Below are positions 21,963 through 48,652 of a stretch of 64,000 nucleotides of DNA, one piece after another (the stretch's first letter is position 1; the number at the start of each line of letters is the position of its first letter). The DNA comes from Candidatus Heimdallarchaeum aukensis (GTDB taxonomy: Archaea; Asgardarchaeota; Heimdallarchaeia; Heimdallarchaeales; Heimdallarchaeaceae), in the NCBI GenBank assembly GCA_021513695.1, contig CP084166.1, positions 1,728,001 through 1,792,000 of the forward strand, given 5' to 3'. Below the pieces are notes generated by a model. That model saw nothing but the letters and a program-made list of their open reading frames with translations, searched no databases and was not told where the DNA came from. The translations under genes were made by a program, and so were the position numbers.

Positions 21963-22847
21963 ATGGGTTTTCTAAAAGTGAGTGACAATTGTATCTTATG
22001 TGGAAGATGTGTAGATATATGCCCTAGATACATTTTTCAAATCGATAAAACAAAATCTAAGAAAGTAATAATTAATGAGAATGTTCAATATTGTCACGAT
22101 TGTGGACATTGTGTTGCAATCTGTCCCCAAGATGCAATAGTTAATACTAGAATGGGAGATAATCTGGATGTAGATTTTCCTTTAGTTCCTTCAAATATTG
22201 ATTATGAAAAAGCTTTATCTTTTATTCGCTTAAGAAGATCAATAAGGAAATTTAAATCAGAACTTATCTCTGAGGAAAAGGTTAAGCAACTCTTAGAATT
22301 TAGTAGATTTGCGCCTACTGGCCACAATACTAACGCAGTTGAGTATACGATAATTATTGGAAGAGACAAAATTGATGTCTTATGGGGAGAAACAATACAA
22401 TTGATGAAGGAAGTGATACGCAAAATTAACAATCCATTTTGGGTTGGAATAGCCTTTTTAGCTGGAAAAAAGAATTTTGTAAATGAAGCTAAAAAAAACG
22501 AATATAGATTAAATAGCCATATTATTAACTTTGAGAATAAGAAGGATACTATTTTCCATGGAGCACCTATGTTGATTTTACTGCACACAGGAAAAAAAGC
22601 TGCAAGCCCTATTGAAGATTGCGCGATCGCTTCAGAAAACATCATGCTAGGAGCGAATACATTGGGGTTAGGAGCAACAATTATTGGTTATTTTGTTAGA
22701 GCTTGGAAACATTCAAAAAAGATAAAAAAACTTGTAAACCTGCCAAAAGGCCATATTCTCCATTCTTGTTTAAGCGTGGGTGTTCCAACTTACAATTTTA
22801 GAAGACTAGTTCCGCGACCAGAGCCAAATATCTCTTTTATAAAATAG
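21963..22847 (+). CDS. 2x[4Fe-4S] ferredoxin-nitroreductase fusion protein
   Basis: CILCGRCVDICP and CHDCGHCVAICP cluster motifs followed by nitroreductase-fold region (LRRSIRKF..., GANTLGLGATIIGYF). Confidence 0.7.
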   Translation: MGFLKVSDNCILCGRCVDICPRYIFQIDKTKSKKVIINENVQYCHDCGHCVAICPQDAIVNTRMGDNLDVDFPLVPSNIDYEKALSFIRLRRSIRKFKSELISEEKVKQLLEFSRFAPTGHNTNAVEYTIIIGRDKIDVLWGETIQLMKEVIRKINNPFWVGIAFLAGKKNFVNEAKKNEYRLNSHIINFENKKDTIFHGAPMLILLHTGKKAASPIEDCAIASENIMLGANTLGLGATIIGYFVRAWKHSKKIKKLVNLPKGHILHSCLSVGVPTYNFRRLVPRPEPNISFIK

Positions 22848-22864
22848 AAATTAACAAAAGATGC

Positions 22865-23524
22865 TTAATATAGTTGTTCCAAGAGCCTATCAAGATGTTT
22901 TATCATTTCTTTTCTTAATACTTCTTTAGGTGGTTTTTCTAGAGTTTTAATAGCTGTCAAATCTTGTTCTAATATAATATGAGCTGCTATAGTACGAAGT
23001 ATATCATTGTACACACTTTCTGGAAGTTGATGTTCAACACTTGCTATAGGTTCTGCTTTGATCGTTTTTTTCTTTGCTCTAACCGTAGATTTAACAACAG
23101 CTTTTTCTTTTGGAACAATCATTTTTTCTCCAGAGACTAGTGCTCTTTCTTGTTCTTCTATTGCTTGAAAGGTTGTTTTTTCTGTCTTAATGTCTACTGG
23201 CTTCATTACCTCCCGTATTGTTTCTTTACCAAAATCTTCTAATTTTCCTGCAAATATCTCTTGCAATTTTTCTTCTGATTCTTCGTGCTCGATATTTACA
23301 ATCTTATACTTAGAAGAAAAGAATCTTGCATTTAGATTAGTTGCAGCTCTCCCTGCAGCATAAGCTAATGATCTGGTTATACCTGGTTTTCTGTATATCC
23401 AGATCTTTTTTGGTTCCCGAGCTAAAATTAAATATGCCCCATTACCTTTCTCCAAACTTGAAATATCAGCACCTACCTCTGAATAACTCCCATCTTTTTT
23501 TACCGAGAAGATTCTTATTGTCAT
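22865..23524 (-). CDS. gelsolin-like domain protein with C-terminal helical extension (putative Asgard gelsolin, 1-domain + X architecture)
   Basis: N-terminal ~100 aa align to a gelsolin repeat by eye: IRIFSVK.. / GAYLIL(DAYVIL) / IWIYRKPG..SLAYAAGRAATNLN (hYWhG..s..E.gaAA) / KIVNIEHEESEEKLQEIF (vqhREvqG.ES..F..yF); likely start is M9 of the track ORF. Confidence 0.4.
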   Translation of the reverse strand: MTIRIFSVKKDGSYSEVGADISSLEKGNGAYLILAREPKKIWIYRKPGITRSLAYAAGRAATNLNARFFSSKYKIVNIEHEESEEKLQEIFAGKLEDFGKETIREVMKPVDIKTEKTTFQAIEEQERALVSGEKMIVPKEKAVVKSTVRAKKKTIKAEPIASVEHQLPESVYNDILRTIAAHIILEQDLTAIKTLEKPPKEVLRKEMIKHLDRLLEQLY

Positions 23525-23607
23525 TGGATCCCCCTTAAAATTACACACTAGTAATATAATCAGAAGGGAATACTAAAATTTTTCCTTTTTTCTTCAAACT
23601 AAATGTA

Positions 23608-24327
23608 CTATTCTGCATAAAGAGTTTTATCTTCTATATTTGCATTTGAAAACGCTCTTTTTCTTCGTAAACAGCTTTCACATTTTCCGCAATGAATTGG
23701 TCTTCTATCTTTAGTCCATCCAGTAAGTCTGTAACATGAAGACGAAAACTCATATTTTGCACTTTTTTCATTTAGAAACAACACAATATCCTTTTTATCA
23801 GAAGCAATAAAAGGAGAAATAACTTTTACTTCATTCATACAACCAAGTTTCATAGCGGCATTCATTCGTTCAACAAAATCTTTGGTGTTGTCAGGAAAGG
23901 TTTCTCCCTCTTCTATATTTGCACCAAAGATGATATCTACTGTATTTTTTTCGCTGTCTGCTGCCGATGCAGCTATAGACAAAAATAGTAAATTTCTACC
24001 TGGAACCCACACTTTTTTTGCAGAATCTATGGTTATATCCTTGTCATCTAGTTTTTCAAATTCTTTAAATTCAGGGAGTTCTTCTACAGATTGAGAGAGA
24101 TTGGAACCTGCTTTAGCAGTAAACTCCTTTAGAAATGGCAGAGAGATAATTTTTGATTCTATAGAGAAAAAATCTGCAAATGTCTTATTAGTTCTCTCTA
24201 TTACTTCATCTTCTTTACTCCCATACAAGAATGATAGTAAAGAGACTGAATCATATTTTTCTAATGCCCAATACAAGCAAGCTGTAGAATCTAATCCTCC
24301 TGAAAATAATACTATGGCTTTTTTCAT
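23608..24327 (-). CDS. queC: 7-cyano-7-deazaguanine synthase
   Basis: PP-loop LFSGGLDST; C-terminal zinc Cys cluster CGKCESCLRRKRAF. Confidence 0.85.
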   Translation of the reverse strand: MKKAIVLFSGGLDSTACLYWALEKYDSVSLLSFLYGSKEDEVIERTNKTFADFFSIESKIISLPFLKEFTAKAGSNLSQSVEELPEFKEFEKLDDKDITIDSAKKVWVPGRNLLFLSIAASAADSEKNTVDIIFGANIEEGETFPDNTKDFVERMNAAMKLGCMNEVKVISPFIASDKKDIVLFLNEKSAKYEFSSSCYRLTGWTKDRRPIHCGKCESCLRRKRAFSNANIEDKTLYAE

Positions 24328-24366
24328 TGTGAAACAAGAATGGAAGATGTTTTTTTATTTTTCTGT

Positions 24367-25710
24367 TTAATCCTTTCTCAATTTTACTATGAAAAAGCCT
24401 TCTGTATTATGTAAGCTAGGAGTTAACATTTGTGCTTTATTTTCAAGTGATTCTATTCTTATCCCTATCATCGGTTCCATTTTTTCGATACTAAAATTTG
24501 TGTTCTTGGAGAGAAACTCCTCTATTACATATACATTTTCATCTTTAAATATTGAACAAGTTGAGTAGGTAATTTCTCCTCCGTCCTTAAGTACTCTTGC
24601 TGATTCATCCAACAACTTCTTTTGAATAGCTGTATAAAATTTCAGATCTCTCTTTTCCAATCGAAATTTCGTTTCAGGCCGGGTAGAATAAGTCCCAGAA
24701 CCTGTACATGGCGGATCAAGAAGTATTTTGTTAAACTTATTATTGAATAAACTTGATATCATTCTTGAATCAGTGTTTATAATCTCAATTCCATTAACTC
24801 CTAGAAGATCCATTCTCTTTTTTAAGATAGATACTCTTCGTTCATTTAACTCACAAGCAAAAATATTGTTTCCTGAATTATTTAGTGCAGCTAAATGAGA
24901 AGTTTTTTGTCCTGGTGCAGCACATACATCTAGAATAAGATCATGAGGCTTTGGTTTTACGATTAAAGAAACCAATGCTGAAGATTTTTGTTGAATTACT
25001 ATTTTTCCATTTTTGAAAATATCTAATCTAGGAAGAGCTACTGGAGACTTTTTAATTTGTATTAAGTTTGGTATATCCTTATCAACTTCATATTCAATGT
25101 CAAAAGAGGTTAATACTTGCTCTATTTCCTTCATTTCAGATTTTAAGGTGTTTACCCTTATGTATGTCGGAAGAACAGTTTGGATAGAATTAAGAAAATC
25201 CAGTGAAAAGTTCTCTCCCCATTGAGAAAATAACTTTCTGATGATCCATGTTGGAGTGTAATATTTCAGGGATAATAGGCTGATTTCATCTTTATTTCTT
25301 TCTAACATCTGCATTGACACAGATTCAATATTCTTCACAATGCCTTCAAAATCAAAATTTTTGTTGTTATTGAAGAGAGTGTTGAACTCTTTTTTTATGT
25401 CTCCTAACATCGAACTGTACACTTGAGCATATTTAACAATAAAAGTGATTAAACGTAACAATGCCTTTTTTTCGAATGAGAGTTTCTTTAGTGAGAAATA
25501 AGAAGAACTTTCTTTTATATAAAGATCTATCACATTTAATTTCCCAATAATATTAAAAACGAAGTAGTATATCCTTGCTTCTTCATCTTTGTTCAATGTA
25601 TATTCAGATCTAACCCTATTCATTGCGTTTCGAATAGAATCTCCCTTTTCTACTTGAACCAATGCAGAAAGAATGGGTTTTATGATTATGTTCATGTCGC
25701 TCCCTCTCAT
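24367..25710 (-). CDS. NOL1/NOP2/Sun-family RNA cytosine-C5 methyltransferase (RsmB/NSUN-like)
   Basis: N-terminal NusB-like region; SAM motifs DVCAAPGQKTSHLA, DPPCTGSGT, catalytic Cys TCSI; TEGFFIVKL C-terminus. Confidence 0.8.
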   Translation of the reverse strand: MRGSDMNIIIKPILSALVQVEKGDSIRNAMNRVRSEYTLNKDEEARIYYFVFNIIGKLNVIDLYIKESSSYFSLKKLSFEKKALLRLITFIVKYAQVYSSMLGDIKKEFNTLFNNNKNFDFEGIVKNIESVSMQMLERNKDEISLLSLKYYTPTWIIRKLFSQWGENFSLDFLNSIQTVLPTYIRVNTLKSEMKEIEQVLTSFDIEYEVDKDIPNLIQIKKSPVALPRLDIFKNGKIVIQQKSSALVSLIVKPKPHDLILDVCAAPGQKTSHLAALNNSGNNIFACELNERRVSILKKRMDLLGVNGIEIINTDSRMISSLFNNKFNKILLDPPCTGSGTYSTRPETKFRLEKRDLKFYTAIQKKLLDESARVLKDGGEITYSTCSIFKDENVYVIEEFLSKNTNFSIEKMEPMIGIRIESLENKAQMLTPSLHNTEGFFIVKLRKD

Positions 25711-25734
25711 TTTCAGCTTTTGTCTTAATTTACA

Positions 25735-26544
25735 TTAGTATTGGTCATAATCATGAGGAGTTTTTAATTTTATTGAATCTTGAGGGAGAAATAGCGTTGG
25801 TATCTCAACATCCAGCTGAATTGTTTGTGCAAGTTTTCTAAGTAATATATTCAAATAGTCAATGTGGTTCAAATATATTAGGTTTAAGTTTGCCTTTTTG
25901 TACAAAGGCAACTTTTGTGAATTTATATGAAAAGAGATTACAGTATCCACACCCGAATCCTTTATTACAAATATATCATCTATGGTAAATGGAGCAGAAG
26001 GATTTTCTACAATTAGTTTGGAGTTATCATCTTTCAAATCTAAAGACACCCAATTTTTTGAGAGATGAGAGAGAGATGTCATGAATTCGTCAAAAGAAAT
26101 AGGTGATACAGAGAATATTGTACTATTAGAATTATGTAAAGTGATAGGTTCTTCATCGAGATAATTCATCCCAATTGTATTTAGAAAATACTGAAAACCA
26201 GTTTTAAACAGCCAACTACGTGAAATATTGATTGTAATAATATTGTTAATTGCTAATGTCCTTATTAATTCATATTCTTTATCAATAAGCTGACCTTTCT
26301 CAGCCTTTGCAAAAGGTATAGACTCTGCTTTTAATACAAGATTCAATTTGTTTTCTAACATAAAACCGATATTGCTATTCGAAAAATAAGGAGTAACTAA
26401 TATACCAGATACATGAAGAGCTTTCAATCTTTCTTCATTAGTTGGAGCAAACTCAACAATAAAAGCTTGAGAGGACATATTATCAGTAATAAATGTTCTC
26501 TTGAGCTGTTTAAGAAATTGATAGAGTGAAGTGACCATGAACAA
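25735..26544 (-). CDS. hypothetical protein (gene Y of the 7-deazaguanine operon)
   Basis: ORF embedded between queD and the NSUN methyltransferase on the same strand with short gaps; no motif recognised. Confidence 0.3.
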   Translation of the reverse strand: MFMVTSLYQFLKQLKRTFITDNMSSQAFIVEFAPTNEERLKALHVSGILVTPYFSNSNIGFMLENKLNLVLKAESIPFAKAEKGQLIDKEYELIRTLAINNIITINISRSWLFKTGFQYFLNTIGMNYLDEEPITLHNSNSTIFSVSPISFDEFMTSLSHLSKNWVSLDLKDDNSKLIVENPSAPFTIDDIFVIKDSGVDTVISFHINSQKLPLYKKANLNLIYLNHIDYLNILLRKLAQTIQLDVEIPTLFLPQDSIKLKTPHDYDQY

Positions 26545-26590
26545 CGAATCATAAGAATGAATAAAAAAGATTTGGATAAAAATGGTTTTT

Positions 26591-27052
26591 TTATTCAGAA
26601 AAAACAGCTATACTTGTTGGAGTTTCCGATATAGAAACTGTGATTTTTAATTCTGGATAATTTTCTTTAATTAGATTATGGATATATCTTGCTAACAATT
26701 CTGCAGTAGTAGCTTCAATAGGAAGAATCAGCACATCTTCTTTTGGAAAACGATAATATTTATTTTCTGTAGTTAAAATTTTTACTTCCCGTTCATCAGT
26801 GGTTATATTAAATTCTTTACTATGTAAAGGCACTAGTACCTTATGATCAAATTGTTTTACGATGTTCTTAACTTTAGTTTTAAATTCTCCAAAATCTACC
26901 ACCATCTTTTTTTCATTTAACTGACCTTCGGCCTCAACCTTTAATCTATAGTTGTGCCCATGCAATCTAGAGCACTTATCATGGTGAGACAATATATGAG
27001 CTGCTGAAAACGAAAGTTTATCTCCTGAAATTTGTATCTTCATTTTTATCAC
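26591..27052 (-). CDS. queD: 6-carboxy-5,6,7,8-tetrahydropterin synthase
   Basis: AAHILSHHDKCSRLHGHNYRLKV (Cys-His-His zinc/catalytic motif of QueD/PTPS family); 153 aa. Confidence 0.85.
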   Translation of the reverse strand: MIKMKIQISGDKLSFSAAHILSHHDKCSRLHGHNYRLKVEAEGQLNEKKMVVDFGEFKTKVKNIVKQFDHKVLVPLHSKEFNITTDEREVKILTTENKYYRFPKEDVLILPIEATTAELLARYIHNLIKENYPELKITVSISETPTSIAVFSE

Positions 27053-27672
27053 TTGATTACTCTTGTTTTAACAATGTCATGTTTAACTTTATCTATTTCT
27101 TGAACATATTTTTTTGCTACAGAAATCGCGAATGACAATAGCTCTTCCTCTGAGAAACCTATTTCTTTTAAGCCTATTGCTTGAACATGGTTAGGCACTC
27201 CATCACTTGAGATGTTTATTCCAAAATGAATTTTTCCGCTATTTCCTCCTATTGTTGCAATACCCACATTTAGTTTTTTTCCATTAACGTAAATATCAGT
27301 TCCTTTACGTTGAATTAAGTTAACACCTTTTTCAACTAATGATTCTATAACAACAATTGTTAAAATTCTAAGTCTATAATACATAATTTCTAGATTTGGT
27401 GGCTGAACATCAAATTCTTCAACTATAAAATGAATTGCATCATCAGAACTAATTAGAACTTTAGCTAAATGAAATTCATTTAAAATATCTTTTAGATCAA
27501 GCATTTCTTTTGGGGTTAGTTTCATATCACCTCTAAATATAAGTACACTATTTCCAGGAACATTATAGTGTTCATATGTGTATAGAGACTGAATCTGTGA
27601 ACCATCGTAGCATATCTTTTCATTGAAATCCAGATATTTGATTGTATAATCTTCTAGTTTTTCTTCACTCAT
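27049..27672 (-). CDS. hypothetical protein (gene X of the 7-deazaguanine operon; possible BPL/LplA-like fold)
   Basis: Overlaps folE2 stop by 8 nt and queD start by 4 nt (translational coupling); segment KGTDIYVNGKKLNVGIATIGGNSGKIHFGINI weakly resembles biotin/lipoate-protein-ligase catalytic motif. Confidence 0.3.
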   Translation of the reverse strand: MSEEKLEDYTIKYLDFNEKICYDGSQIQSLYTYEHYNVPGNSVLIFRGDMKLTPKEMLDLKDILNEFHLAKVLISSDDAIHFIVEEFDVQPPNLEIMYYRLRILTIVVIESLVEKGVNLIQRKGTDIYVNGKKLNVGIATIGGNSGKIHFGINISSDGVPNHVQAIGLKEIGFSEEELLSFAISVAKKYVQEIDKVKHDIVKTRVIK

Positions 27673-28627
27673 CTTTTTTTTCCTCCAAGAGCTCTTTCTT
27701 CAAGTCTCCAATAGTTGTGCAAACTTCAGCTACTGCATCATGTTGGTGAATACTTTCATAATTAATCTGTTTTGCATATACTTGTACTTCATCGGGTAAA
27801 TGCCCAAACTTGAAAACTACATTCTGTAATAATGTTCTGATTACGTCTTCTACGAAACCAGGTTTTTTGTGAGCGTATAACACTACTGCTTGTTCATCTT
27901 TTCTTTTTAACACTTCATGAATTGGAGCGCTCATACTTATTTCCATTAGTGCTATAATATCATCTAACTCAATTCTCGGAGAGTCTTCAGGTAATTCAAA
28001 AAGAAGTATTGCTTTTGATCTTTGATTGTGTGCAGCAAGTGGAATTATATCCAAAATTTCATTAATTTGTTCATCTGAATAACCTTTTTTCTTTAATTGT
28101 TCTTTAGCAAAATCACGCGATAATTCCTCTGAACAGGGACAAACTGTAGTTCCTTGTACTTCAGCGCCTATAATTTTTTTAATTCTGATTTCTCCATTAA
28201 TAACTTCAGCTTTTGCTCCAGCTTTTAATTTATGAACACTTGATTTTTTCTTAAGCAAAGGTTCAGAAAAAGTTTCAGCTTCATAATCAGCTTCAAGTTT
28301 CACTTCTGAAAATTTAGCTCCATCTTGTATTTCTATAACTTTTCTTGCTATTCGGGAGCATAATACTTCTGTATCTGAAATAACTTCGCTCAGTAGTTCT
28401 GCCGTCACTTCATTTATTGCTTCAATATTTCGTGACATGTGTATTCCTCTTTGTGTAGAAACAAGGTCTACATACACATCTATTTTAGCTGATAACTCAT
28501 TATACGAGTTCTTCCATTTTCTTCTAATTATTTTAGGTATATTACTAACACCTACTCGCTGTAAACTTAACTTTATTAGTGCTTTATCAGCTTGCACATC
28601 AGAAATAATTTCACTATTTAAACTCAT
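27665..28627 (-). CDS. folE2: GTP cyclohydrolase I type 2 (FolE2/MptA family)
   Basis: Hallmark QRGIHMSR motif; ~320 aa; operon context with queD/queE/queC. Confidence 0.75.
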   Translation of the reverse strand: MSLNSEIISDVQADKALIKLSLQRVGVSNIPKIIRRKWKNSYNELSAKIDVYVDLVSTQRGIHMSRNIEAINEVTAELLSEVISDTEVLCSRIARKVIEIQDGAKFSEVKLEADYEAETFSEPLLKKKSSVHKLKAGAKAEVINGEIRIKKIIGAEVQGTTVCPCSEELSRDFAKEQLKKKGYSDEQINEILDIIPLAAHNQRSKAILLFELPEDSPRIELDDIIALMEISMSAPIHEVLKRKDEQAVVLYAHKKPGFVEDVIRTLLQNVVFKFGHLPDEVQVYAKQINYESIHQHDAVAEVCTTIGDLKKELLEEKKDE

Positions 28628-28635
28628 TTTTTCAC

Positions 28636-29460
28636 CTACAAGATATTGATTAATTTATGAACTTGAACTGAAAGTCCGATTTTTTCTGAAGAAAGATATT
28701 CACCTGCTATCTCGGTAAAAGACCTAATTTTTTTCCATGCGGGAGGTTGAATTTCAAGTCCTTTCTTTGGAGTAACAGGTTGAATTACTAAAGGGATTTG
28801 ATGCTTACCACACATACTAGAAATATAACGAAAATCTTCTTCAGTTGATTTGTTAGAGATTACAACTTTTGCAAATACTTTTACGCCATTTTTTTGAAGA
28901 ATTCTGCACATTTTGAGTTCTTGTTCAGCTAGTTTTTTCCAATCTTTAGCTGACTGTGCACTCCTATCTTTAATATCTACACAAGCGTAATCAATTTTAC
29001 TGGAAACCATCTCTAATTCACTAAGATTTTCAGTATAAGCTGTTTCCAAATATAAAAGATACCCCCGTTTCTTTAATTCATCAATAAGATTTGAGACGAA
29101 ATCAACCTGTAACAAGGGCTCTCCTCCCGTTAAACTAATAGAATGAAGATCTGGTGTTTTTAGGTTTTCTATAATTTCTACTAGTTGAGCGACTGAAATA
29201 GGGTTCTCAACTTTTTTAAATTCTTGCTCTCCAGCCTTCTTTTCAACAAAAAAGATTTTTGGTTTTAATATCTGAGCTTTGGGGCTATCACACCACACGC
29301 AACCTTTTGTTCCACAAGCCCCAAGTGCCAAAGGACAGCCTGCAAAACGGACAAATATCTGTCTTAAACCATAACAGCTACCAGAAAGTGAAGCACCTTC
29401 ACCTTGGAAAGAAGAGAATATTTCTTGTATAAAACCGTATTTAGTTAGCTCTTTTTTCAT
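28636..29460 (-). CDS. queE: 7-carboxy-7-deazaguanine synthase-like radical SAM enzyme
   Basis: Cys-rich cluster FAGCPLALGACGTKGCVWCD (variant CxnCxxC motif as in some QueE), SLTGGEPLL SAM-binding motif; operon context. Confidence 0.7.
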   Translation of the reverse strand: MKKELTKYGFIQEIFSSFQGEGASLSGSCYGLRQIFVRFAGCPLALGACGTKGCVWCDSPKAQILKPKIFFVEKKAGEQEFKKVENPISVAQLVEIIENLKTPDLHSISLTGGEPLLQVDFVSNLIDELKKRGYLLYLETAYTENLSELEMVSSKIDYACVDIKDRSAQSAKDWKKLAEQELKMCRILQKNGVKVFAKVVISNKSTEEDFRYISSMCGKHQIPLVIQPVTPKKGLEIQPPAWKKIRSFTEIAGEYLSSEKIGLSVQVHKLINIL

Positions 29461-29564
29461 TACTAGAAAACATATTTAGGGGTAAATAAAAATTCTCTTT
29501 TAACAGAAGAATAATTTTTCAAATTTACAAATAAAAAAATTAGAAAAGACGAAGGGTAAACAGT

Positions 29565-30398
29565 TCACTCATATTTTCTTTTAATTGCTGACAATACTCT
29601 TTCTTGCCAGTCAACTAGCTTTTCAGCGAGCTCTTTATGTAAATCGGGGTGTAAGGGGGCATCAGCTTTAAGTTTATCTATTTTTTTCAACCAACTATTA
29701 ATTTCATACAACATTGGGCTCATGCCCACGCTCGTTTCTACTTCATCACGCAACTCTTCAAGGTACTTTAGAACAGAGCTAGATATGGATTGTGGACTTA
29801 TCATTTGAGATATGTGTTTAAACTTATTCTTTATTGCGTCCATTGCAACTTGTGCATCAGCAGCAGCAGTAGAGATAACAGGTTCTTCTGCTATTCCGGG
29901 TGAGGTATATTCTGTACTAGTTTCTTTTTGGGGAGCATGTTCTTTTATCTCAAAATCATTGTTAAGTACTTCAGAACTAGATAAAGTAGTTGCAGGGGTA
30001 GGCTCTGAAGGAACTGGTTTAGGTTCAATCTTTTTAGAAATTTCTTGTTTTGATGCAACCTCAACTAATTTTTTATCAAGATTTGCAGTTAATTGCTCAA
30101 TCTTTGTTTCTAAAATTCCTAAAATATTTCGAATTGAAGGTATATCTGTAAGATATTGTAAATTTTCCAAGGAACCATTTGCTAATTTATCACTAACAAG
30201 AGAAAAAGTTTCGATCTTAGTTTTTATGTCATCAACTTTTGCATTCAATTCATTTAAATTAAATCCTGCTATTTGTTTCTCAAAATTTGATAATTGTTCA
30301 GAAAAATGACTTATTGTATTTTGAATTGCGTTTACAGATTCTGCTAGGGTGTTGATTGAATTAACTAATTCTACAAGTTTATTTTCAACATCACTCAT
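29565..30398 (-). CDS. hypothetical coiled-coil protein
   Basis: N-terminal ~120 aa heptad repeats, central P/S/T-rich linker, C-terminal helical region. Confidence 0.35.
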   Translation of the reverse strand: MSDVENKLVELVNSINTLAESVNAIQNTISHFSEQLSNFEKQIAGFNLNELNAKVDDIKTKIETFSLVSDKLANGSLENLQYLTDIPSIRNILGILETKIEQLTANLDKKLVEVASKQEISKKIEPKPVPSEPTPATTLSSSEVLNNDFEIKEHAPQKETSTEYTSPGIAEEPVISTAAADAQVAMDAIKNKFKHISQMISPQSISSSVLKYLEELRDEVETSVGMSPMLYEINSWLKKIDKLKADAPLHPDLHKELAEKLVDWQERVLSAIKRKYE

Positions 30399-30967: not shown

Positions 30968-31438
30968 ATGAGCTTGGATGAAGAAGAATTTTTTGCAAGA
31001 TTAGCTATTGAAGCAAATGAATTAAAACGTGAGCTTCCTACTTTTAAACCAGTTGATGGAGATATGACTCATTTACGTGGATTTATTTTTGGAACAGGAC
31101 TTTATGAAGGAGGAGTATTTGTTTTAGACATAATCATCCCTAGAGAATACCCATTTAAACCACCAAAAGTAGAATGTTTAACAAAAATTTTTCATCCTAA
31201 CTTCTTTAATAGAAGAATTTGTGTAGGGGTTTTAGGCGCAGATTGGACACCAGCAAATAACCTTGTTGATGTAATTGAGAGCATACGATTTTTGCTTGGT
31301 GAACCAAATCCTGACGATCCTTTAAATTCCACGGCAGCCAACTTAATGAAAAGAGATCTTAAAGCATTTGAACAAAAAGCCAGAGAATACGTGGAAAAAT
31401 ACGCATCATTTAGTCAAATACAAGAATATGGTTTATAA
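30968..31438 (+). CDS. Ubiquitin-conjugating enzyme E2 (UBC fold)
   Basis: HPN motif and active-site Cys: KIFHPNFFNRRICVGVL; downstream W..A..L..V..SI..LL.EPNPDDPLN pattern typical of UBC domain. Confidence 0.8.
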   Translation: MSLDEEEFFARLAIEANELKRELPTFKPVDGDMTHLRGFIFGTGLYEGGVFVLDIIIPREYPFKPPKVECLTKIFHPNFFNRRICVGVLGADWTPANNLVDVIESIRFLLGEPNPDDPLNSTAANLMKRDLKAFEQKAREYVEKYASFSQIQEYGL

Positions 31439-34426: not shown

Positions 34427-35437
34427 GTGGTTACCGTGTCAGAAATAGTACAACAAATAATTGATTCTGGTGCAATTTATCTAGTTAATCCAGCTTTAAT
34501 TCAAACAACAGTAGATGACTTTTTAGATAAATATGGACATTTATTAGATGTAATTGGTTTATATGCAAAGGGGAGTAATGGTTTCACTTTTTTCCCCAGT
34601 AATAATGCCCCAAAACATCCAAATTTAAGTATTTATTTCCATTCCTTCTGCACTATTGCAGATAATATGGGAATAAAAGTTGATGCCTTTAGTCATGTAC
34701 ATCGAGATAGTTTTTTGGTTCAAAATGCAGATTTCAGGGAACAAAGTAGTGATGGAGAGAAAATTGATTTGTTCGCATGTCCAAGTCATCCTTACATTAA
34801 TCAGTATAACTCTGCCATTGTTTCAGAAATCGTACAATATCCAGTTAATAAACTAGTTTTGGATAATATTTTATTTGCAAATTTAAAAGCATGTTTCTGC
34901 GATAGATGTAGAAGGTTATTTGCACAAAAATGGAATATTGAACGAGATTTCAGTTATGATTTCTTAAAATCAAGAGATTTTTATGATAATTGGGTTGAGT
35001 TTAGAACAACACTAATAGAAAATACACTAAGAGAGATTACAGATTCAATGAAACAGATCAAGAATGTTGATTTGGCATTTGTCATCAAGGCAGATAAAGA
35101 AACTAGCTATTTAACAGGAACAGAGGAGAATTTTGGACAGAATATAGCAAATATGCTTAAAATTACAAATAACATAATAACCCATGTTAATCCTTGGACA
35201 GAGATTCCCTCAGCTGGCAGTGAAGACTTCCAAAATCTTGTTAATGCCCTTTCACCACTTTTAGAACTATCAAAAACAGGAGTTGAACATTCATTGCTTT
35301 TCTGGGGTGTTAATGACAAAGAAAAATTAGATCTTGTTTTAAAGTTAAGCGAAGATTTGAACCCAAACAATATCTACATCCAAGATATAAAGCCAACAGA
35401 CTTCACAAAGTTAAGGCAAATTAATTTAGGTTTTTAA
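34427..35437 (+). CDS. hypothetical protein
   Basis: 336 aa ORF; Cys pair CFCDRCRR; first gene of a tightly packed three-gene unit. Confidence 0.3.
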   Translation: MVTVSEIVQQIIDSGAIYLVNPALIQTTVDDFLDKYGHLLDVIGLYAKGSNGFTFFPSNNAPKHPNLSIYFHSFCTIADNMGIKVDAFSHVHRDSFLVQNADFREQSSDGEKIDLFACPSHPYINQYNSAIVSEIVQYPVNKLVLDNILFANLKACFCDRCRRLFAQKWNIERDFSYDFLKSRDFYDNWVEFRTTLIENTLREITDSMKQIKNVDLAFVIKADKETSYLTGTEENFGQNIANMLKITNNIITHVNPWTEIPSAGSEDFQNLVNALSPLLELSKTGVEHSLLFWGVNDKEKLDLVLKLSEDLNPNNIYIQDIKPTDFTKLRQINLGF

Positions 35438-35438
35438 A

Positions 35439-36881
35439 ATGAAGGGGATCGAAGACGCAGTCGAAGAAATAAAACAAATGTTCTGGGGAGTTTTAAAGGG
35501 AAGTTACAGCCCTGAGGAAGAAGAAGATGTAAAAGTAAGACTTATTACTGCTTTATCAAGTTTAACTGCATTTGCAAAATCTTTTTTGCCAGAAGAACAA
35601 CAGCAAGAATATGAAGAACAATTTTCTCAAGCACGTAACATTTTACAGCGGTTTGATTCAGCTGGCCCTTGGTTCAGAGAGCTTCCAGAGATGATTGATG
35701 CAGTGTACAATATTCTTACCTATGCAAATGTATTGCAGATAGAAGTACAGCGATATAAAGACATGAATAATGATGCGCTACAATACTATAACATAAAACT
35801 TGAAAAAATAGAAATGAAGTTAAATTCACTTGAAAATGAACTTAGAAAAATAAAAACTTATGTTAAAGAGAGGATTACCAAAGAAGATTTGGTTAAAGAA
35901 AGCGAAATAATTGAAATTGAAGAAAAAGAAGAAAAACTTCTTCAAACTCAAGAGATTTTAGGCGAAGAGACTAAACTTGAAACTGTTGAAAGAGCAGAAG
36001 ACTTAGAAGAAGCACTTGAATTAGTAAAAGAAGAACCAGAGCTGTTACAGGTTGATGAAGCCGTTGAGATGGAAGAACCAGAAACAGTAGATGAAACTGT
36101 AATGTCTAAATTAGAGGATATTACAACTGAAGATATTAGTAGCATACCTAAAGATATTTCTAAAGAAGACATAAATTTAATTGAAGGAATCGAACTAGCC
36201 TCAAAACTTGAAGAAGATCACATCCCTATAAAGGAGAGTTTAGAAACAGAAAGTGAAAGTCTGCAAAAACTTGCAAATTTACTTCAAGCTCTTGATCCAG
36301 GCGACGATCTAGTTCTTTCACCATTAACTCAAAAACTATTAGAGCTAAGTGGTGATGAAGGAAAAGCTGAGATAGCAGCAGAAAAAAAGCAAGAATTTCA
36401 AATTGATGTGCAAGAGCAAACTGGCACTGAAGTAGCGAAAGAAGCTGAAATGAAAGATGCTAGTGTTCCTTCGTCAGTTGATAGATTAAGTGACATTTTG
36501 GCTTCACCTGACAAAATACAAGATGCAGCAACATTCATTTCAGCAATCCGTGACACTATTGATCAAGTAGCAAAACAAACTGATGATGATTCAACATCTA
36601 CCCCCTTAACTAAAATAATTGAAGCAGAAACTGGTCAAACAGATGAAACACCTTTAAGCATTGCTGATATTGAGAATATTATTAGCCATTTAGAAAACAA
36701 AAGAGAAAACGCAATAGAACGGGTAAAGAAACTCGAAAAAATAATTGCTACAGAAAAAATGGATGAAGCAGAATGGCAAGATTTAATGATAAGTGCACAA
36801 CAACACCTCCTACGAATAGAAGATACTCTTGATGGTTACAAAAGGGTATTAAACAAATTAAGAATGCAATTAGAAAAATGA
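35439..36881 (+). CDS. acidic coiled-coil protein (hypothetical)
   Basis: 480 aa, E/D-rich, long predicted helical/coiled-coil segments; starts 1 nt after upstream stop. Confidence 0.35.
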   Translation: MKGIEDAVEEIKQMFWGVLKGSYSPEEEEDVKVRLITALSSLTAFAKSFLPEEQQQEYEEQFSQARNILQRFDSAGPWFRELPEMIDAVYNILTYANVLQIEVQRYKDMNNDALQYYNIKLEKIEMKLNSLENELRKIKTYVKERITKEDLVKESEIIEIEEKEEKLLQTQEILGEETKLETVERAEDLEEALELVKEEPELLQVDEAVEMEEPETVDETVMSKLEDITTEDISSIPKDISKEDINLIEGIELASKLEEDHIPIKESLETESESLQKLANLLQALDPGDDLVLSPLTQKLLELSGDEGKAEIAAEKKQEFQIDVQEQTGTEVAKEAEMKDASVPSSVDRLSDILASPDKIQDAATFISAIRDTIDQVAKQTDDDSTSTPLTKIIEAETGQTDETPLSIADIENIISHLENKRENAIERVKKLEKIIATEKMDEAEWQDLMISAQQHLLRIEDTLDGYKRVLNKLRMQLEK

Positions 36882-44635: not shown

Positions 44636-47600
44636 TTAGCTAAAGAATGTGTCTAAACTTTTTATTCCCTCAACTTCTTTCCATGAGATCCCAAGTGTAT
44701 CCAATAGTTGTCCGAATGTTGATTGTACTAACTCTTTCATTTTTTTCACATCTACATCAGATTTAGTTGCAAGTTCAATAGGTTTGACGGAACACTCATC
44801 ACTTAAACTAATCTTATCATTTAGTAGACCGGAAGGTACTTTTATCTTAAAGGGTTTTGTTTTAACGAATGTTATAGTTGAGCCTACGGCTATATCACTA
44901 TTAGGATTTTTAATTAATAACTGTATTGCTGCTTGTAATGGTTGTGTCCAGCTCTCATAATCTTTTAATCTTTTGGAAAGAGTAACTGAAATAGCTAGGT
45001 CCTCAAGCTTAAACGATCTTTCATCGAGCCTTCTCATTGTTCGCTGGACAATACTGATTATTTTCTCTTTTGCAGTCTCCAATTCTTCAGGAGAATTAAC
45101 ATCAGAAAGAATTTTTAAAACTCTATCAAAAGCACGTTTGATTAGAGAAGGAGTGTTCTTTTTCTTGCCCATTAGGCCTTTTACAATTGGTGTTCCTTTT
45201 GTTGTTATTCCAAAGTAATTTTTCTTTCGATCTGAAAGGCAACAATATCTAAAAACGTAGTCAATCCCTAATTCAATTTGAAAATTATCTAAACTCCATT
45301 TCTTTAGTTCTTCAATATCACTTGATTTTGGTTGGTAGACAAATATGCTATCTGTATCACCATATAACACAGGAATTCCCAAATCTTTTTCACAGTGCTC
45401 TTTCGTTTTTGAAATTGCTTCTCTAGCCAAAGCAGTGGTCGATTCTGCCACTGGAGGACAATATAAAGCAAAGTTATCTGAACCTAAAACACCATATGAA
45501 TTGTGAACAACAATGCCAGTATCGCTTACAAACCAACCGTTTGATGTTTGAATGTCGTATACTGGTTCACTTGAAGAAGCGCGGATGTCTCTAATTCGAG
45601 TGGGAATTGTTCCATTATAGGATACAAAATCTTGCTTTTTACTATTGTATAGTTTACCAGACTGTTCAACAACTTGATAAATAGTTTGAATCACTTTACC
45701 ATTTTCAATCCGTTCGTCTCTACGAATATTTACAAATCTACCTGTTGCATTCGCAACCATAACAAGATCAGTAGCCAATTGTTTACTTACAGTTGTATAT
45801 TGAATATTATTACCTGTCATAGCTCTTTCATTATCTTTGAAGCATTCTTCTATGAAAATCTCGGCTCTGGATTTATTTAACAAATGAAGAGGAATTTTCC
45901 TATTGCTCATGTACTTTCCACAAAGCTGTTCTAGAATCCTAGACCAAATTTTAGAGTTTATTACAAATCCTTTTTCACTAGCATTAAAATTAAGATTCAT
46001 GCGAGATAAAACTTCATTAATCTTTTTCCATTTTTCTGGACTCTTATCTTGATTTTGAGAAATAAATATATGATTTTTCTGAATATTCCCTTCAGCGATA
46101 ACCCAAGCAATCAATCGAATGAGATCGTCATCAATTGATATTCTGGCATTATACCATAAACTTTCATCATCTCCAAGTGCAACTTTTATCTCTTCTGAAA
46201 GATTTTTTCTAATGGTTTCTCTTTCATACTCTTTTAGCTCAATCCATCTTGCTTTACATAATTTCAATTTTTTACTTTGACAGAATCGCTCTTTAATAGT
46301 ATGTATGCTTGGTTTGTCAACTGGTTGATTTATTTTGTTAGAAAAATTTTCAAAATCAGCTCTTGAGAATCCTATATACAACTCTTGATCATGAATTAAA
46401 TCTGGAATAAAGAGAGTTTCAGGAGGATTTTGAGTCAATGGAATATTTTGAACAACTAAAATTTTATCATTAATCTTCAATTCCCCAGCATATTTCTCAT
46501 CAACTTGAAAATTTGATAGTAGTACAGGAACTCTATGATTAGCTGTTAGTCTAATAGCTCTCCCATCCTCAAGTATAATTTTTATTAAGTCAGCAGGTGA
46601 CCTTTCCCAGTAACCTTCTATGTCCACAAATATAGGAGAACCAAAAGTTTCATCTTCTTCTCGAGAGATTGATAATATCTGATAATCTTGCCAACAGTCT
46701 GCGAGTTCTCCAATTGGGAGTTTAGTTACTATTTTTGTCTGCTTGTCCCTTACAATTACTTCTGCATCATAGGGCAAACAAGCATTTATGAGAACTTTCA
46801 ATGATGCTTGCATTACATTGCTTAGAACCCTTAGTGCTTTATCGACAGTCTGATCCTTTGCTTTTTCTTTAAACCAGTAGACCCTGATATCACGGATAAA
46901 GCCAATCAACATGGACATTATCCCAACTTTTTTTGTACATACCCAGTGATTTGTTTCTGGTATTTTATTTAGTTCCTTACATTCTTTATGCTTACACCTA
47001 ATAGTTTCATATGAAAGATTACGTGTCTTGATTATAGAGGGATAAAGACTGGCATAATCCAGGACATAAACATCCCACCATACTCCAGCTTTTGGTTGAA
47101 TAACAATGGCGCCTTGGTATTTCTTTCCTTTTATAATCGCCTCAGTAGATACCTCTCCTTTGGCTCGTAGTATGTCTTCTGGTAAAGGAATAAGATAGTT
47201 CCTTTTTCTGTGTTCATAATAGAACCAATTTTGTATCCAAATACTTACACTTGAACGGATAAAATCATCGATAGGCATCTTCGTCATTCTTGAAAGCATA
47301 AAGATAAGTTCCATCACTTGATTTTGACTAAAAGTAGTAAGTTCAAGAGTGATTACAGCGTCTTGGGCGTTATATTCTATAAGTTCCTCTAAACTTAGAT
47401 CCCAAATATCTTTTTCATGTTCAACCTTATGTTTGCCTAAGAGAGTTGAACCTAACTCATCTAAAGTTACCCTGTCATATTTTGCTCCAAAAGCATAAAT
47501 TCTCATCGATGCTTGCCTGAAAAAACGATAAAGATCAAGATGCAATCCATATTCAAGATAAGTATCATTCTGAGTTGAAGTTGTAGTTATAATTGGATTT

Positions 47601-48652
47601 TTCATGTCATTTATGCCCAAGTTTTTTGCACGTTTGTTTAAGTAAGGTAAGTCAAAATTATCTCCATTAAAAGTTATAATTATAGGATATTCATTTATTT
47701 TCTTAAAAACAGCTTCAATCAATTCTTTTTCATTTTCAAATTCAATAACTTTTATTTTCTCATCTTTTTTCTGAATAGACGTTTTTTCTTCATTTAAAAC
47801 ATATATTGACACATCACCACTTGTGTCGGCAAAGCCCACGGAGATAATTTTGTCATTAGCTACCTTGGGATCAGGAATCCTTCCTTTATCACTTTTTACT
47901 TCAATATCAAGAGAACAACGGGGAATATCAGGAATTGGTGAAAAAAATGTAGGAAAATAAGATAAAACCAATTCATGTATTTCACTAGGTTGACTAGAGA
48001 AAATTTTTGTTATTTCGTCCTTAATGGAAGGATCGATTTCTGGTTCTACTTGAATTATTTTTCCGTCCTTAATTTCATATAGCAATCCTGGAACAAGTAA
48101 ATTATCGTAGATATAATTGAGATGGTAACGGATATTAGCTTCATAGGAGGGCTTGATAAATTCTCTGAAGCTGTTTGATTTTCCTCCTATAGCTAGAGGA
48201 TTAGTACCATAAACTTTTGTAAGAGAAATAGAACTATCAGTTAACAAATTGTATTTTTCTACAGTTTCACAACCCACAAATTCCTTATTACCTTGTAGGA
48301 TACTTTCTACTTCACTAATAGTTTTTGTAGTCAACAAATAGGGTTTATGTTCTGTTTTGTCGTAAAAACGGTAAACTTTTCCATCTTCAGGATTATAAAA
48401 TTTCATGTATGCTTGCTCTTTTTCACCATCATAATTTACAGAAATAAGATAAGATGCAGGAAGATCAGAATGGACAACTAAAATATTAGAATTATCATCA
48501 AGGAAAGTGATGTTACTACTATCTGAATCGCTGGAAGACGATTCTTTAACTTCAACCCCTTTGATTTCTGAAACCTTTGTAGGAGAAGAGGATTTTTTAT
48601 TTCTCTCTATATTGGGGCGAGACAAAAATTTCTCTAAATTCATTTGACCCAT
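44636..48652 (-). CDS. polB: Family B DNA polymerase (intein-containing)
   Basis: Exo II FNGDNFDLPYL, Exo III YNAQDAVITLEL, Pol motif A DYASLYPSI, motif B split KVLINA|intein|SYGVLGS, motif C LYGDTDSIFV. Confidence 0.9.
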   Translation of the reverse strand: MGQMNLEKFLSRPNIERNKKSSSPTKVSEIKGVEVKESSSSDSDSSNITFLDDNSNILVVHSDLPASYLISVNYDGEKEQAYMKFYNPEDGKVYRFYDKTEHKPYLLTTKTISEVESILQGNKEFVGCETVEKYNLLTDSSISLTKVYGTNPLAIGGKSNSFREFIKPSYEANIRYHLNYIYDNLLVPGLLYEIKDGKIIQVEPEIDPSIKDEITKIFSSQPSEIHELVLSYFPTFFSPIPDIPRCSLDIEVKSDKGRIPDPKVANDKIISVGFADTSGDVSIYVLNEEKTSIQKKDEKIKVIEFENEKELIEAVFKKINEYPIIITFNGDNFDLPYLNKRAKNLGINDMKNPIITTTSTQNDTYLEYGLHLDLYRFFRQASMRIYAFGAKYDRVTLDELGSTLLGKHKVEHEKDIWDLSLEELIEYNAQDAVITLELTTFSQNQVMELIFMLSRMTKMPIDDFIRSSVSIWIQNWFYYEHRKRNYLIPLPEDILRAKGEVSTEAIIKGKKYQGAIVIQPKAGVWWDVYVLDYASLYPSIIKTRNLSYETIRCKHKECKELNKIPETNHWVCTKKVGIMSMLIGFIRDIRVYWFKEKAKDQTVDKALRVLSNVMQASLKVLINACLPYDAEVIVRDKQTKIVTKLPIGELADCWQDYQILSISREEDETFGSPIFVDIEGYWERSPADLIKIILEDGRAIRLTANHRVPVLLSNFQVDEKYAGELKINDKILVVQNIPLTQNPPETLFIPDLIHDQELYIGFSRADFENFSNKINQPVDKPSIHTIKERFCQSKKLKLCKARWIELKEYERETIRKNLSEEIKVALGDDESLWYNARISIDDDLIRLIAWVIAEGNIQKNHIFISQNQDKSPEKWKKINEVLSRMNLNFNASEKGFVINSKIWSRILEQLCGKYMSNRKIPLHLLNKSRAEIFIEECFKDNERAMTGNNIQYTTVSKQLATDLVMVANATGRFVNIRRDERIENGKVIQTIYQVVEQSGKLYNSKKQDFVSYNGTIPTRIRDIRASSSEPVYDIQTSNGWFVSDTGIVVHNSYGVLGSDNFALYCPPVAESTTALAREAISKTKEHCEKDLGIPVLYGDTDSIFVYQPKSSDIEELKKWSLDNFQIELGIDYVFRYCCLSDRKKNYFGITTKGTPIVKGLMGKKKNTPSLIKRAFDRVLKILSDVNSPEELETAKEKIISIVQRTMRRLDERSFKLEDLAISVTLSKRLKDYESWTQPLQAAIQLLIKNPNSDIAVGSTITFVKTKPFKIKVPSGLLNDKISLSDECSVKPIELATKSDVDVKKMKELVQSTFGQLLDTLGISWKEVEGIKSLDTFFS
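45500..46780 (-). other. Intein (427 aa) with LAGLIDADG-type homing endonuclease region, inserted in PolB motif B
   Basis: Begins CLPYDAEV (Cys1) after KVLINA, block B LTANH, LAGLIDADG-like LIRLIAWVIAEGN, ends IVVHN followed by +1 Ser (SYGVLGS). Confidence 0.8.

Follow-up and report, generated by a model that had tools for sequence, protein, structure and literature searches.

A 64,000-nucleotide (nt) stretch of the genome of the Asgard archaeon Candidatus Heimdallarchaeum aukensis (contig CP084166.1, positions 1,728,001 to 1,792,000; hereafter, the window, with a G+C content of about 31%) carries on its minus strand a row of genes for the synthesis of preQ0 (7-cyano-7-deazaguanine). Database proteins with 100% identity to products of the window bear the name of this organism. 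An MptA-type GTP cyclohydrolase (GCH), QueD, a QueE with a Cx11Cx2C cysteine cluster, and QueC are all encoded there in tight packing, giving the route from GTP to preQ0. Taken as a whole, the row is probably a chromosomal housekeeping one, in which a protein of the DUF366 family (here called X) may tentatively be linked to 7-carboxy-7-deazaguanine (CDG), and a NIF3-like protein (Y) and an RsmB-like RNA methyltransferase would make up a separate module.

The operon is an ordinary, standard archaeal preQ0 cluster found in a new lineage. Canonical clusters (folE/folE2-queD-queE-queC or, in Archaea, MptA/B-QueD-QueE-QueC) contain the same four families in co-directional order, and yield preQ0 from which archaeosine or queuosine is made. 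MptA and MptB carry out the first steps in Archaea (PMC5485725, Fig. 1); no MptB was identified in our window. The unusual features are three: the presence of DUF366 as a fifth conserved gene, a QueE with Cx11Cx2C in place of the canonical Cx3Cx2C spacing, and the insertion of the Y and RsmB-like genes, which is specific to the Heimdall lineage.

The DUF366 gene is the feature of widest interest, since the pathway from GTP to preQ0 is regarded as accounted for in full by four enzymes. Many lineages of archaea and some of bacteria encode, beside queE, queC, or queD, an enzyme-like protein with an adenylate-forming fold, which suggests that this picture has a gap; an accessory activity, a step in substrate handling, or some variant chemistry could fill it. 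If DUF366 were indeed an adenylating enzyme, a fifth step or enzyme would be added to a pathway held to be complete; being small and having a homolog of solved structure, it offers a directly testable lead for an unassigned 7-deazaguanine activity.

Pathway enzymes and the destination of preQ0

Families were assigned with Pfam and NCBIfam models, and the equivalog cutoffs of the latter were applied. QueC matches PF06508 with 178.7 bits and lies barely over the cutoff of TIGR00364 (151.0 vs. 150.3 bits), and both its PP-loop (SGGLDS) and its C-terminal zinc cysteine cluster (C...CGKCESC) can be read. QueD matches PF01242 with 96.7 bits, falls just under the cutoff of TIGR03367 (81.8 vs. 89.25 bits), and reads CSRLHGH, the motif of QueD and other PTPS proteins being CxxxHGH. 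The cyclohydrolase had been called FolE2 in the first-pass annotation of this stretch, with QRGIHMSR given as its motif. The motif and the membership in PF02649 (213.3 bits) both stand, but the name does not: the protein passes the MptA equivalog TIGR00294 (270.2 bits, cutoff 220), fails the FolE2 model NF010200 (164.5 bits, cutoff 215), and so scores as the archaeal MptA type rather than as FolE2.

The QueE-like protein has matches to Radical_SAM and Fer4_12 and carries the N-terminal signature EIFSSFQGEG (E-x-F-x-S-x-QGEG), of a type common to all of the QueE-like neighbors of DUF366 that we examined. Its cysteines are arranged as C42-x11-C54-x2-C57, the variant cluster already noticed in the first pass; this spacing is kept in the Heimdall orthologs, whereas most other DUF366-linked QueEs show C-x3-C-x2-C. 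Because strong matches fall on long open reading frames (ORFs) in a genome of 31% G+C, the assignments of QueC, QueD, GCH, QueE, and the NSUN-type methyltransferase cannot be attributed to chance. The earlier claim that all four preQ0 steps are encoded co-directionally therefore agrees with both the Pfam and NCBIfam matches and the motifs.

The seven co-directional ORFs lie exactly where that annotation had placed them (Table 1), and its short spacings could be reproduced, that is, a gap of 8 nt between queE and the GCH gene, an overlap of 8 nt between the latter and X, and an overlap of 4 nt between X and queD. This last value depends on the GTG at 27052 being the start codon of queD; with the ATG at 27043, which agrees with the 150-amino acid (aa) orthologs, a gap of 5 nt results. 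The remaining gaps are 46 nt (queD to Y), 24 nt (Y to the RsmB-like gene), and 39 nt (RsmB-like gene to queC).

In the proposed route, ArcTGT, ArcS, and RaSEA, with their genes in other parts of the genome, would place preQ0, the free-base precursor of archaeosine, in tRNA and mature it. No tRNA-guanine transglycosylase (TGT), ArcS, or DpdA gene was found within the 64-kb window: a tblastn search of it with a Heimdall ArcS query gave no match, and the TGT family did not appear in Pfam scans of 30 window ORFs of at least 153 aa, including every ORF of at least 250 aa, which bears out the first-pass statement on the transglycosylase. A link to archaeosine can be seen in a Heimdall metagenome-assembled genome (MAG; locus L006, GCA_016927615.1, 2825-5880), where the order is ArcS (DUF5591 and PUA), RaSEA (TIGR01210, 330 bits), DUF366, and QueD. 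The genes for ArcS and RaSEA lie directly upstream of DUF366-QueD, so that DUF366 is part of a cluster for archaeosine maturation. The ArcS of this locus, a 643-aa protein, has in Pfam the architecture of ArcS rather than of ArcTGT (DUF5591, PUA, and a partial TGT domain). A PUA-containing NSUN methyltransferase is also encoded nearby.

One might read the missing transglycosylase differently and suppose that the cluster feeds 7-deazaguanine to DNA modification, anti-phage defense, or a secondary metabolite instead of tRNA archaeosine, and preQ0 genes do have such roles elsewhere (PMC5699537, PMC13329287). We consider this very improbable. The absence from the window extends to any DpdA/TGT gene, and a defense system was rejected, as the PADLOC models gave no match for X, Y, or Z (see below for Z). 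The flanking genes belong to the housekeeping core (they encode ribosomal proteins S13, S4, and S11, RadA, TFIIB, SecY, a PolB with an intein, Cbf5/TruB, and an aminoacyl-tRNA synthetase), the block is syntenic among Heimdall genomes, and the L006 relative joins DUF366 and QueD to ArcS and RaSEA.

X, a protein of the DUF366 family

X was described in the first pass as uncharacterized, with a possible likeness to ligases of the biotin protein ligase (BPL)/LplA type. It does belong to a known family, Pfam DUF366 (PF04017, E 7.5e-57), and has a homolog of known structure in PH0223 of Pyrococcus horikoshii (2DDZ, a structural-genomics crystal structure; E 6e-32). PH0223 is uncharacterized too, so this match provides a family name rather than a function; a short N-terminal extension distinguishes X from it. 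The suggested ligase-like fold was found by profile comparison: the DUF366 profile matches the Aquifex BPL 2EAY with an E-value of 6.3e-7, and D126, K133, and G151-x-N153 of X fall on WPND, KK-x-SG, and GIGIN, the BPL motifs that contact the acyl-adenylate. Matches of the same profile to polyubiquitin (E 2e-14) were discarded as an artifact, in which repeated 5-bit matches had been summed and no single stretch was significant.

Conservation was assessed in 86 distinct DUF366 sequences with 28-84% identity to X. Eight residues are 100% invariant (G24, G48, D126, K133, I148, H149, N153, and P160), and conservation is 98% or higher at seven more (Y22, D59, D62, H81, E85, R122, and K202), a pattern that looks like that of an active site. 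X therefore has the fold of the BPL/LplA/LipB superfamily with its conserved central-strand lysine and may share BPL chemistry, but it is not a BPL proper, because the GRGRxGR biotin-binding loop is absent from both X and the DUF366 consensus and the Pfam domain BPL_LplA_LipB (PF03099) is not matched by X at an E-value of 0.01 or better. X also differs from these enzymes in having neither the C-terminal cap domain nor the conserved cysteine of LipB, and in that its genomic partners are que genes rather than genes for biotin- or lipoyl-dependent enzymes.

The first-pass annotation had proposed X as a candidate by association with the que genes, and had named its co-occurrence with them in other genomes as a check to be made. 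DUF366 loci were gathered with two narrow alignments and were counted if they had at least 1 kb of flank on both sides. In the metagenomic loci, a que gene lies within 2.5 kb of DUF366 in 30 of 36 cases (QueE in 28, QueC in 9, and QueD in 3), and this is also true of 4 of the 11 loci from species-representative genomes. The usual metagenomic order is QueD-QueC-DUF366-QueE; DUF366 most often has queE immediately downstream, in many cases with queC on its other side, and the surroundings of some of these loci are bacterial (dxr, ispD, DivIC). The order seen here, QueE-GCH-DUF366-QueD, is repeated in other Heimdall genomes and in a MAG of the Methanobacteriota (L021), and loci from Methanocellales (L026, L027, and L030) show QueD-DUF366-QueC with QueE close by. 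Archaeal and bacterial preQ0 clusters thus repeatedly contain DUF366 as a fifth gene, in varied gene orders, and the association is strong. In the Methanoperedens loci, DUF366 adjoins genes for a multi-heme-like CxxCH protein and a membrane protein.

What X might do can be approached from its fold. Proteins with the BPL/LplA/class-II-synthetase fold typically convert a carboxylate into an activated acyl-adenylate, and AsnA provides a precedent for carboxylate-to-amide chemistry in this superfamily. The carboxylated intermediates of the pathway are 6-carboxytetrahydropterin (CPH4) and CDG, the latter being made by QueE and used by QueC. Since the fold is a carboxylate-activating one and the gene is often found between queC and queE, our guess, made with low confidence, is that X would be an ATP- or adenylate-binding enzyme acting on a carboxylated intermediate, most likely CDG with CPH4 as the alternative, and that it would adenylate or amidate CDG or pass it to QueC. 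The more specific proposal, in which DUF366 would be an unrecognized ATP-dependent 7-deazaguanine enzyme, a minimal adenylator of the BPL/class-II-synthetase fold that activates CDG or CPH4 in a new catalytic step, strikes us as rather unlikely. By analogy with AsnA, such an enzyme could assist or replace the first half-reaction of QueC, from carboxylate to amide, or could make a new deazaguanine derivative.

Another possibility, itself somewhat unlikely, is that X is not an enzyme at all but a ligand-binding scaffold, chaperone, or regulator docking on QueE or QueD, which would protect the labile CPH4, channel intermediates, or sense preQ0 or CDG. This would suit the missing biotin-binding loop and BPL domain match, the coverage of every chemical step by the four known enzymes, and the gene overlaps with queE, GCH, and queD, which suggest stoichiometric co-production. 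The 2DDZ entry, moreover, has six chains, and PH0223 is listed in the self-interaction table of a two-hybrid screen (PMC1414084). What speaks against a non-enzymatic X is the active-site-like conservation itself: the eight invariant residues, which include the lysine aligned with the catalytic lysine of BPL, together with H81, E85, R122, D59, D62, and K202, are retained in sequences down to 28% identity.

Several points weigh against the reading of the row that is preferred here, namely a housekeeping preQ0 operon with DUF366 acting on CDG. B. subtilis QueC alone turns CDG into preQ0, so that no extra adenylating step is required, and we know of many archaeosine- or queuosine-making organisms from which DUF366 is missing. 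The lack of the GRGRxGR loop and of a PF03099 match belongs here as well. In 7 of the 11 loci from species-representative genomes, DUF366 has no que neighbor, and it stands alone in loci from Methanosarcinales and Methanoperedenaceae (L017-L020, L022-L025, L028, L029, and L031); these loci are unexplained if DUF366 is strictly a component of the preQ0 pathway. The QueE-like protein falls under the cutoff of all six NCBIfam QueE models, although these are its top matches (the best being TIGR04508, with 51.8 vs. 240 bits). Lastly, our literature search for DUF366, PF04017, and COG2029, which included the 2026 papers on deazapurine genome mining, found no publication mentioning the family.

Y and the RsmB-like methyltransferase

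Y, the other protein regarded as uncharacterized in the first pass, turns out to be a degenerate member of the NIF3/DUF34 superfamily, which is known though enigmatic. When searched alone, it has no match in Pfam (including PF01784), NCBIfam, or the PDB, and a single-sequence AlphaFold model was unusable, with a predicted local distance difference test (pLDDT) score of 31.6; profile methods were used instead. Among 1.84 billion representative proteins, searched exhaustively with HMMER, only 15 homologs were found, of which the named ones are from Heimdallarchaeaceae. The profile of this family matches the NIF3 structure of SA1388 (3LNL) with an E-value of 3.6e-7 and 9G9U with an E-value of 0.008, and hhalign aligned it to canonical NIF3 with 92.5% probability (E 5e-7) over 197 columns covering both halves of the fold. 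Among the relatives of Y, P0032 and P0034 are above the Pfam cutoff for DUF34_NIF3 (PF01784), and P0030 matches under the cutoff.

In length (approximately 265 aa), Y resembles the insert-less members of NIF3/DUF34, a superfamily that includes YbgI, YqfO/SA1388, MJ0927, and HcgD. The tier-1 motifs of the metal site in this superfamily are HH(P), YxxHxxxxD, Dxxx(T/S)G(E/D), and HxxxE (PMC8469502). At these four positions, Y reads KAESIPF, NISRSW, DTVISFH, and NHI--DY, that is, all four are substituted, and the positions are not conserved across the Y family. By its alignment, then, Y is a NIF3-fold protein lacking the dinuclear metal center, and it is probably non-catalytic, given the loss of these motifs. 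As a smaller point, Y adds to NIF3/DUF34 a tiny metal-site-less subfamily, which so far comes from Heimdall-type genomes. P0032 (L015 7001-7822, and L016) is the member of the Y family nearest to canonical NIF3, and its histidine motifs are absent despite its passing the Pfam cutoff; it comes from the metagenomes that also contain P0022, where its neighbors are different (HIT, PAP2), and may represent a second, metal-less NIF3 paralog in these archaea.

The neighboring methyltransferase has the domains of the RsmB/NOP2/NSUN 5-methylcytosine (m5C) enzymes, namely the RsmB-F catalytic domain (PF01189, 167.3 bits) and the RsmF-B ferredoxin-like domain (PF22458), and both catalytic cysteine motifs are intact (DPPCTGSG for PC and STCS for TC), in line with its first-pass identification as an NSUN RNA m5C methyltransferase. 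It reaches no equivalog cutoff; its best NCBIfam match is to RsmB (PRK14902, 277.3 bits, cutoff 319), compared with 120 bits for the tRNA C49 methyltransferase model. The pairing of Y with an RNA methyltransferase has a precedent, as canonical DUF34 genes both cluster and fuse with the tRNA m1A22 methyltransferase COG2384 (PMC8469502), and it echoes the bacterial linkage of NIF3 with TrmK.

Six types of arrangement were distinguished among the Y loci. The methyltransferase is the commonest partner of Y, adjoining it in five of the six. In types C and F (L012 and L035, which differ in that the second has a class I tRNA synthetase upstream), the que operon is complete and uninterrupted, without Y or RsmB in it. 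We are mildly inclined to regard the pair as a module separate from the que genes; it would be concerned with RNA methylation or the ribosome and would have been put between queD and queC by local rearrangements in this genome.

Whether Y and the methyltransferase could instead be true functional members of the preQ0 module deserves consideration, as the gene neighborhoods do not all point one way. Every one of the six types has Y at a distance of one or two genes at most from the que cluster, and this includes L014, where the flanks are different. In type E (L033), the order is QueE-GCH-X-QueD-Y, convergent with QueC, so that Y follows queD and has no RsmB beside it. All of this argues against a module of its own. 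As a member of the preQ0 module, Y could help to assemble the four metalloenzymes or handle their metals, a function as metal chaperone or insertase having been suggested for DUF34 proteins (PMC8469502), or the methyltransferase could act on the same tRNAs, for example at C48, the Levitt-pair partner of archaeosine at position 15 (G+15); archaeosine stabilizes the G15-C48 pair, according to the title of a reference in PMC5485725.

We find functional membership doubtful, however. The idea of Y as a metal chaperone for the que metalloenzymes was given less weight, since none of the metal ligands is left in it, and the methyltransferase scores best as the rRNA enzyme RsmB rather than as the tRNA C49 methyltransferase. 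The family has only about 15 representatives, and most of the loci examined outside the named Heimdallarchaeaceae have the same synteny. Within Heimdallarchaeaceae, the neighborhood is wholly syntenic; it invariably includes a gene for a ubiquitin-conjugating E2 enzyme and, in most of these genomes, a gelsolin-like gene as well. As the E2 gene is equally constant and the gelsolin-like gene usual, the linkage of Y to the que genes can be put down to shared ancestry. Outside the Heimdall lineage, the que clusters that contain DUF366 have neither a Y nor an RsmB gene. Since the que genes of relatives such as L012 and L035 are contiguous without the pair, the link of Y to 7-deazaguanine is weak, and of the two proteins put forward in the first pass as strong candidates for unassigned steps, X keeps that standing through its recurrence with que genes, whereas Y does not.

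Layout of the row and its neighbors

The coordinates are collected in Table 1. The first-pass gene row was correct in its seven genes but not in its extent, an eighth co-directional ORF, Z, having been overlooked. Z has no match in a Pfam search, and the top PDB match of its profile is a gelsolin-like domain (7C2F_B, E 0.009). In relatives, it is placed after QueC in L008, L010, L012, and L035, and beside Y in L014.

Table 1. Coordinates within the window of the preQ0 gene row and its adjoining features
Feature	Position	Strand	Remarks
Intergenic region upstream of queE, likely operon start	29461..29564	-	T-run after upstream gene; A/T-rich TATA-like element ~25-30 nt before ATG
QueE-like radical SAM enzyme (7-carboxy-7-deazaguanine synthase)	28636..29460	-	274 aa; variant Cx11Cx2C cluster
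COG1469 GTP cyclohydrolase (GCH), archaeal MptA type by score, GCYH-IB family	27665..28627	-	320 aa
X, DUF366 protein, BPL/LplA/LipB fold	27049..27672	-	207 aa; conserved accessory gene of preQ0 clusters
QueD (6-carboxytetrahydropterin synthase, PTPS family)	26591..27052	-	150-153 aa
Y, predicted NIF3/DUF34-fold protein	25735..26544	-	267-269 aa; dinuclear metal-site motifs lost
RsmB/NSUN-type RNA m5C methyltransferase	24367..25710	-	447 aa
QueC (7-cyano-7-deazaguanine synthase)	23608..24327	-	239 aa
Z	22865..23548	-	eighth co-directional ORF; 59 nt downstream of QueC

Intergenic sequences were inspected by eye. The region upstream of queE is likely the start of the operon, a reading to be taken with the caution that motifs of this sort are non-specific at 31% G+C. 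Immediately upstream of queE lies a gene for a 277-aa coiled-coil protein (29565-30398, minus strand), which is kept in L008 and L010; its last ~50 residues weakly resemble the NCBIfam model Sel_Asgard (putative selenocysteine system protein), with an E-value of 4e-5 that is far under the cutoff. The E2 enzyme (PF00179, E 7.8e-33), a eukaryote-signature protein, is encoded at 30968-31438 on the plus strand, and in the Heimdall loci that we examined its gene constantly accompanies the que cluster.

On the other side of the row, and convergent with Z, is a plus-strand gene (21963-22847) for a member of the nitroreductase family that begins with a 2x[4Fe-4S] ferredoxin domain at its N terminus. 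In L010, this gene is on the same strand as QueC and Z and lies directly upstream of them. Further away, two ORFs of 336 and 480 aa without a Pfam match at E 1e-5 are found side by side on the plus strand (34427-36881), and the family B DNA polymerase of 1338 aa, encoded at 44636-48652 on the minus strand, contains its intein at residues 646-1051 (Intein_splicing match).

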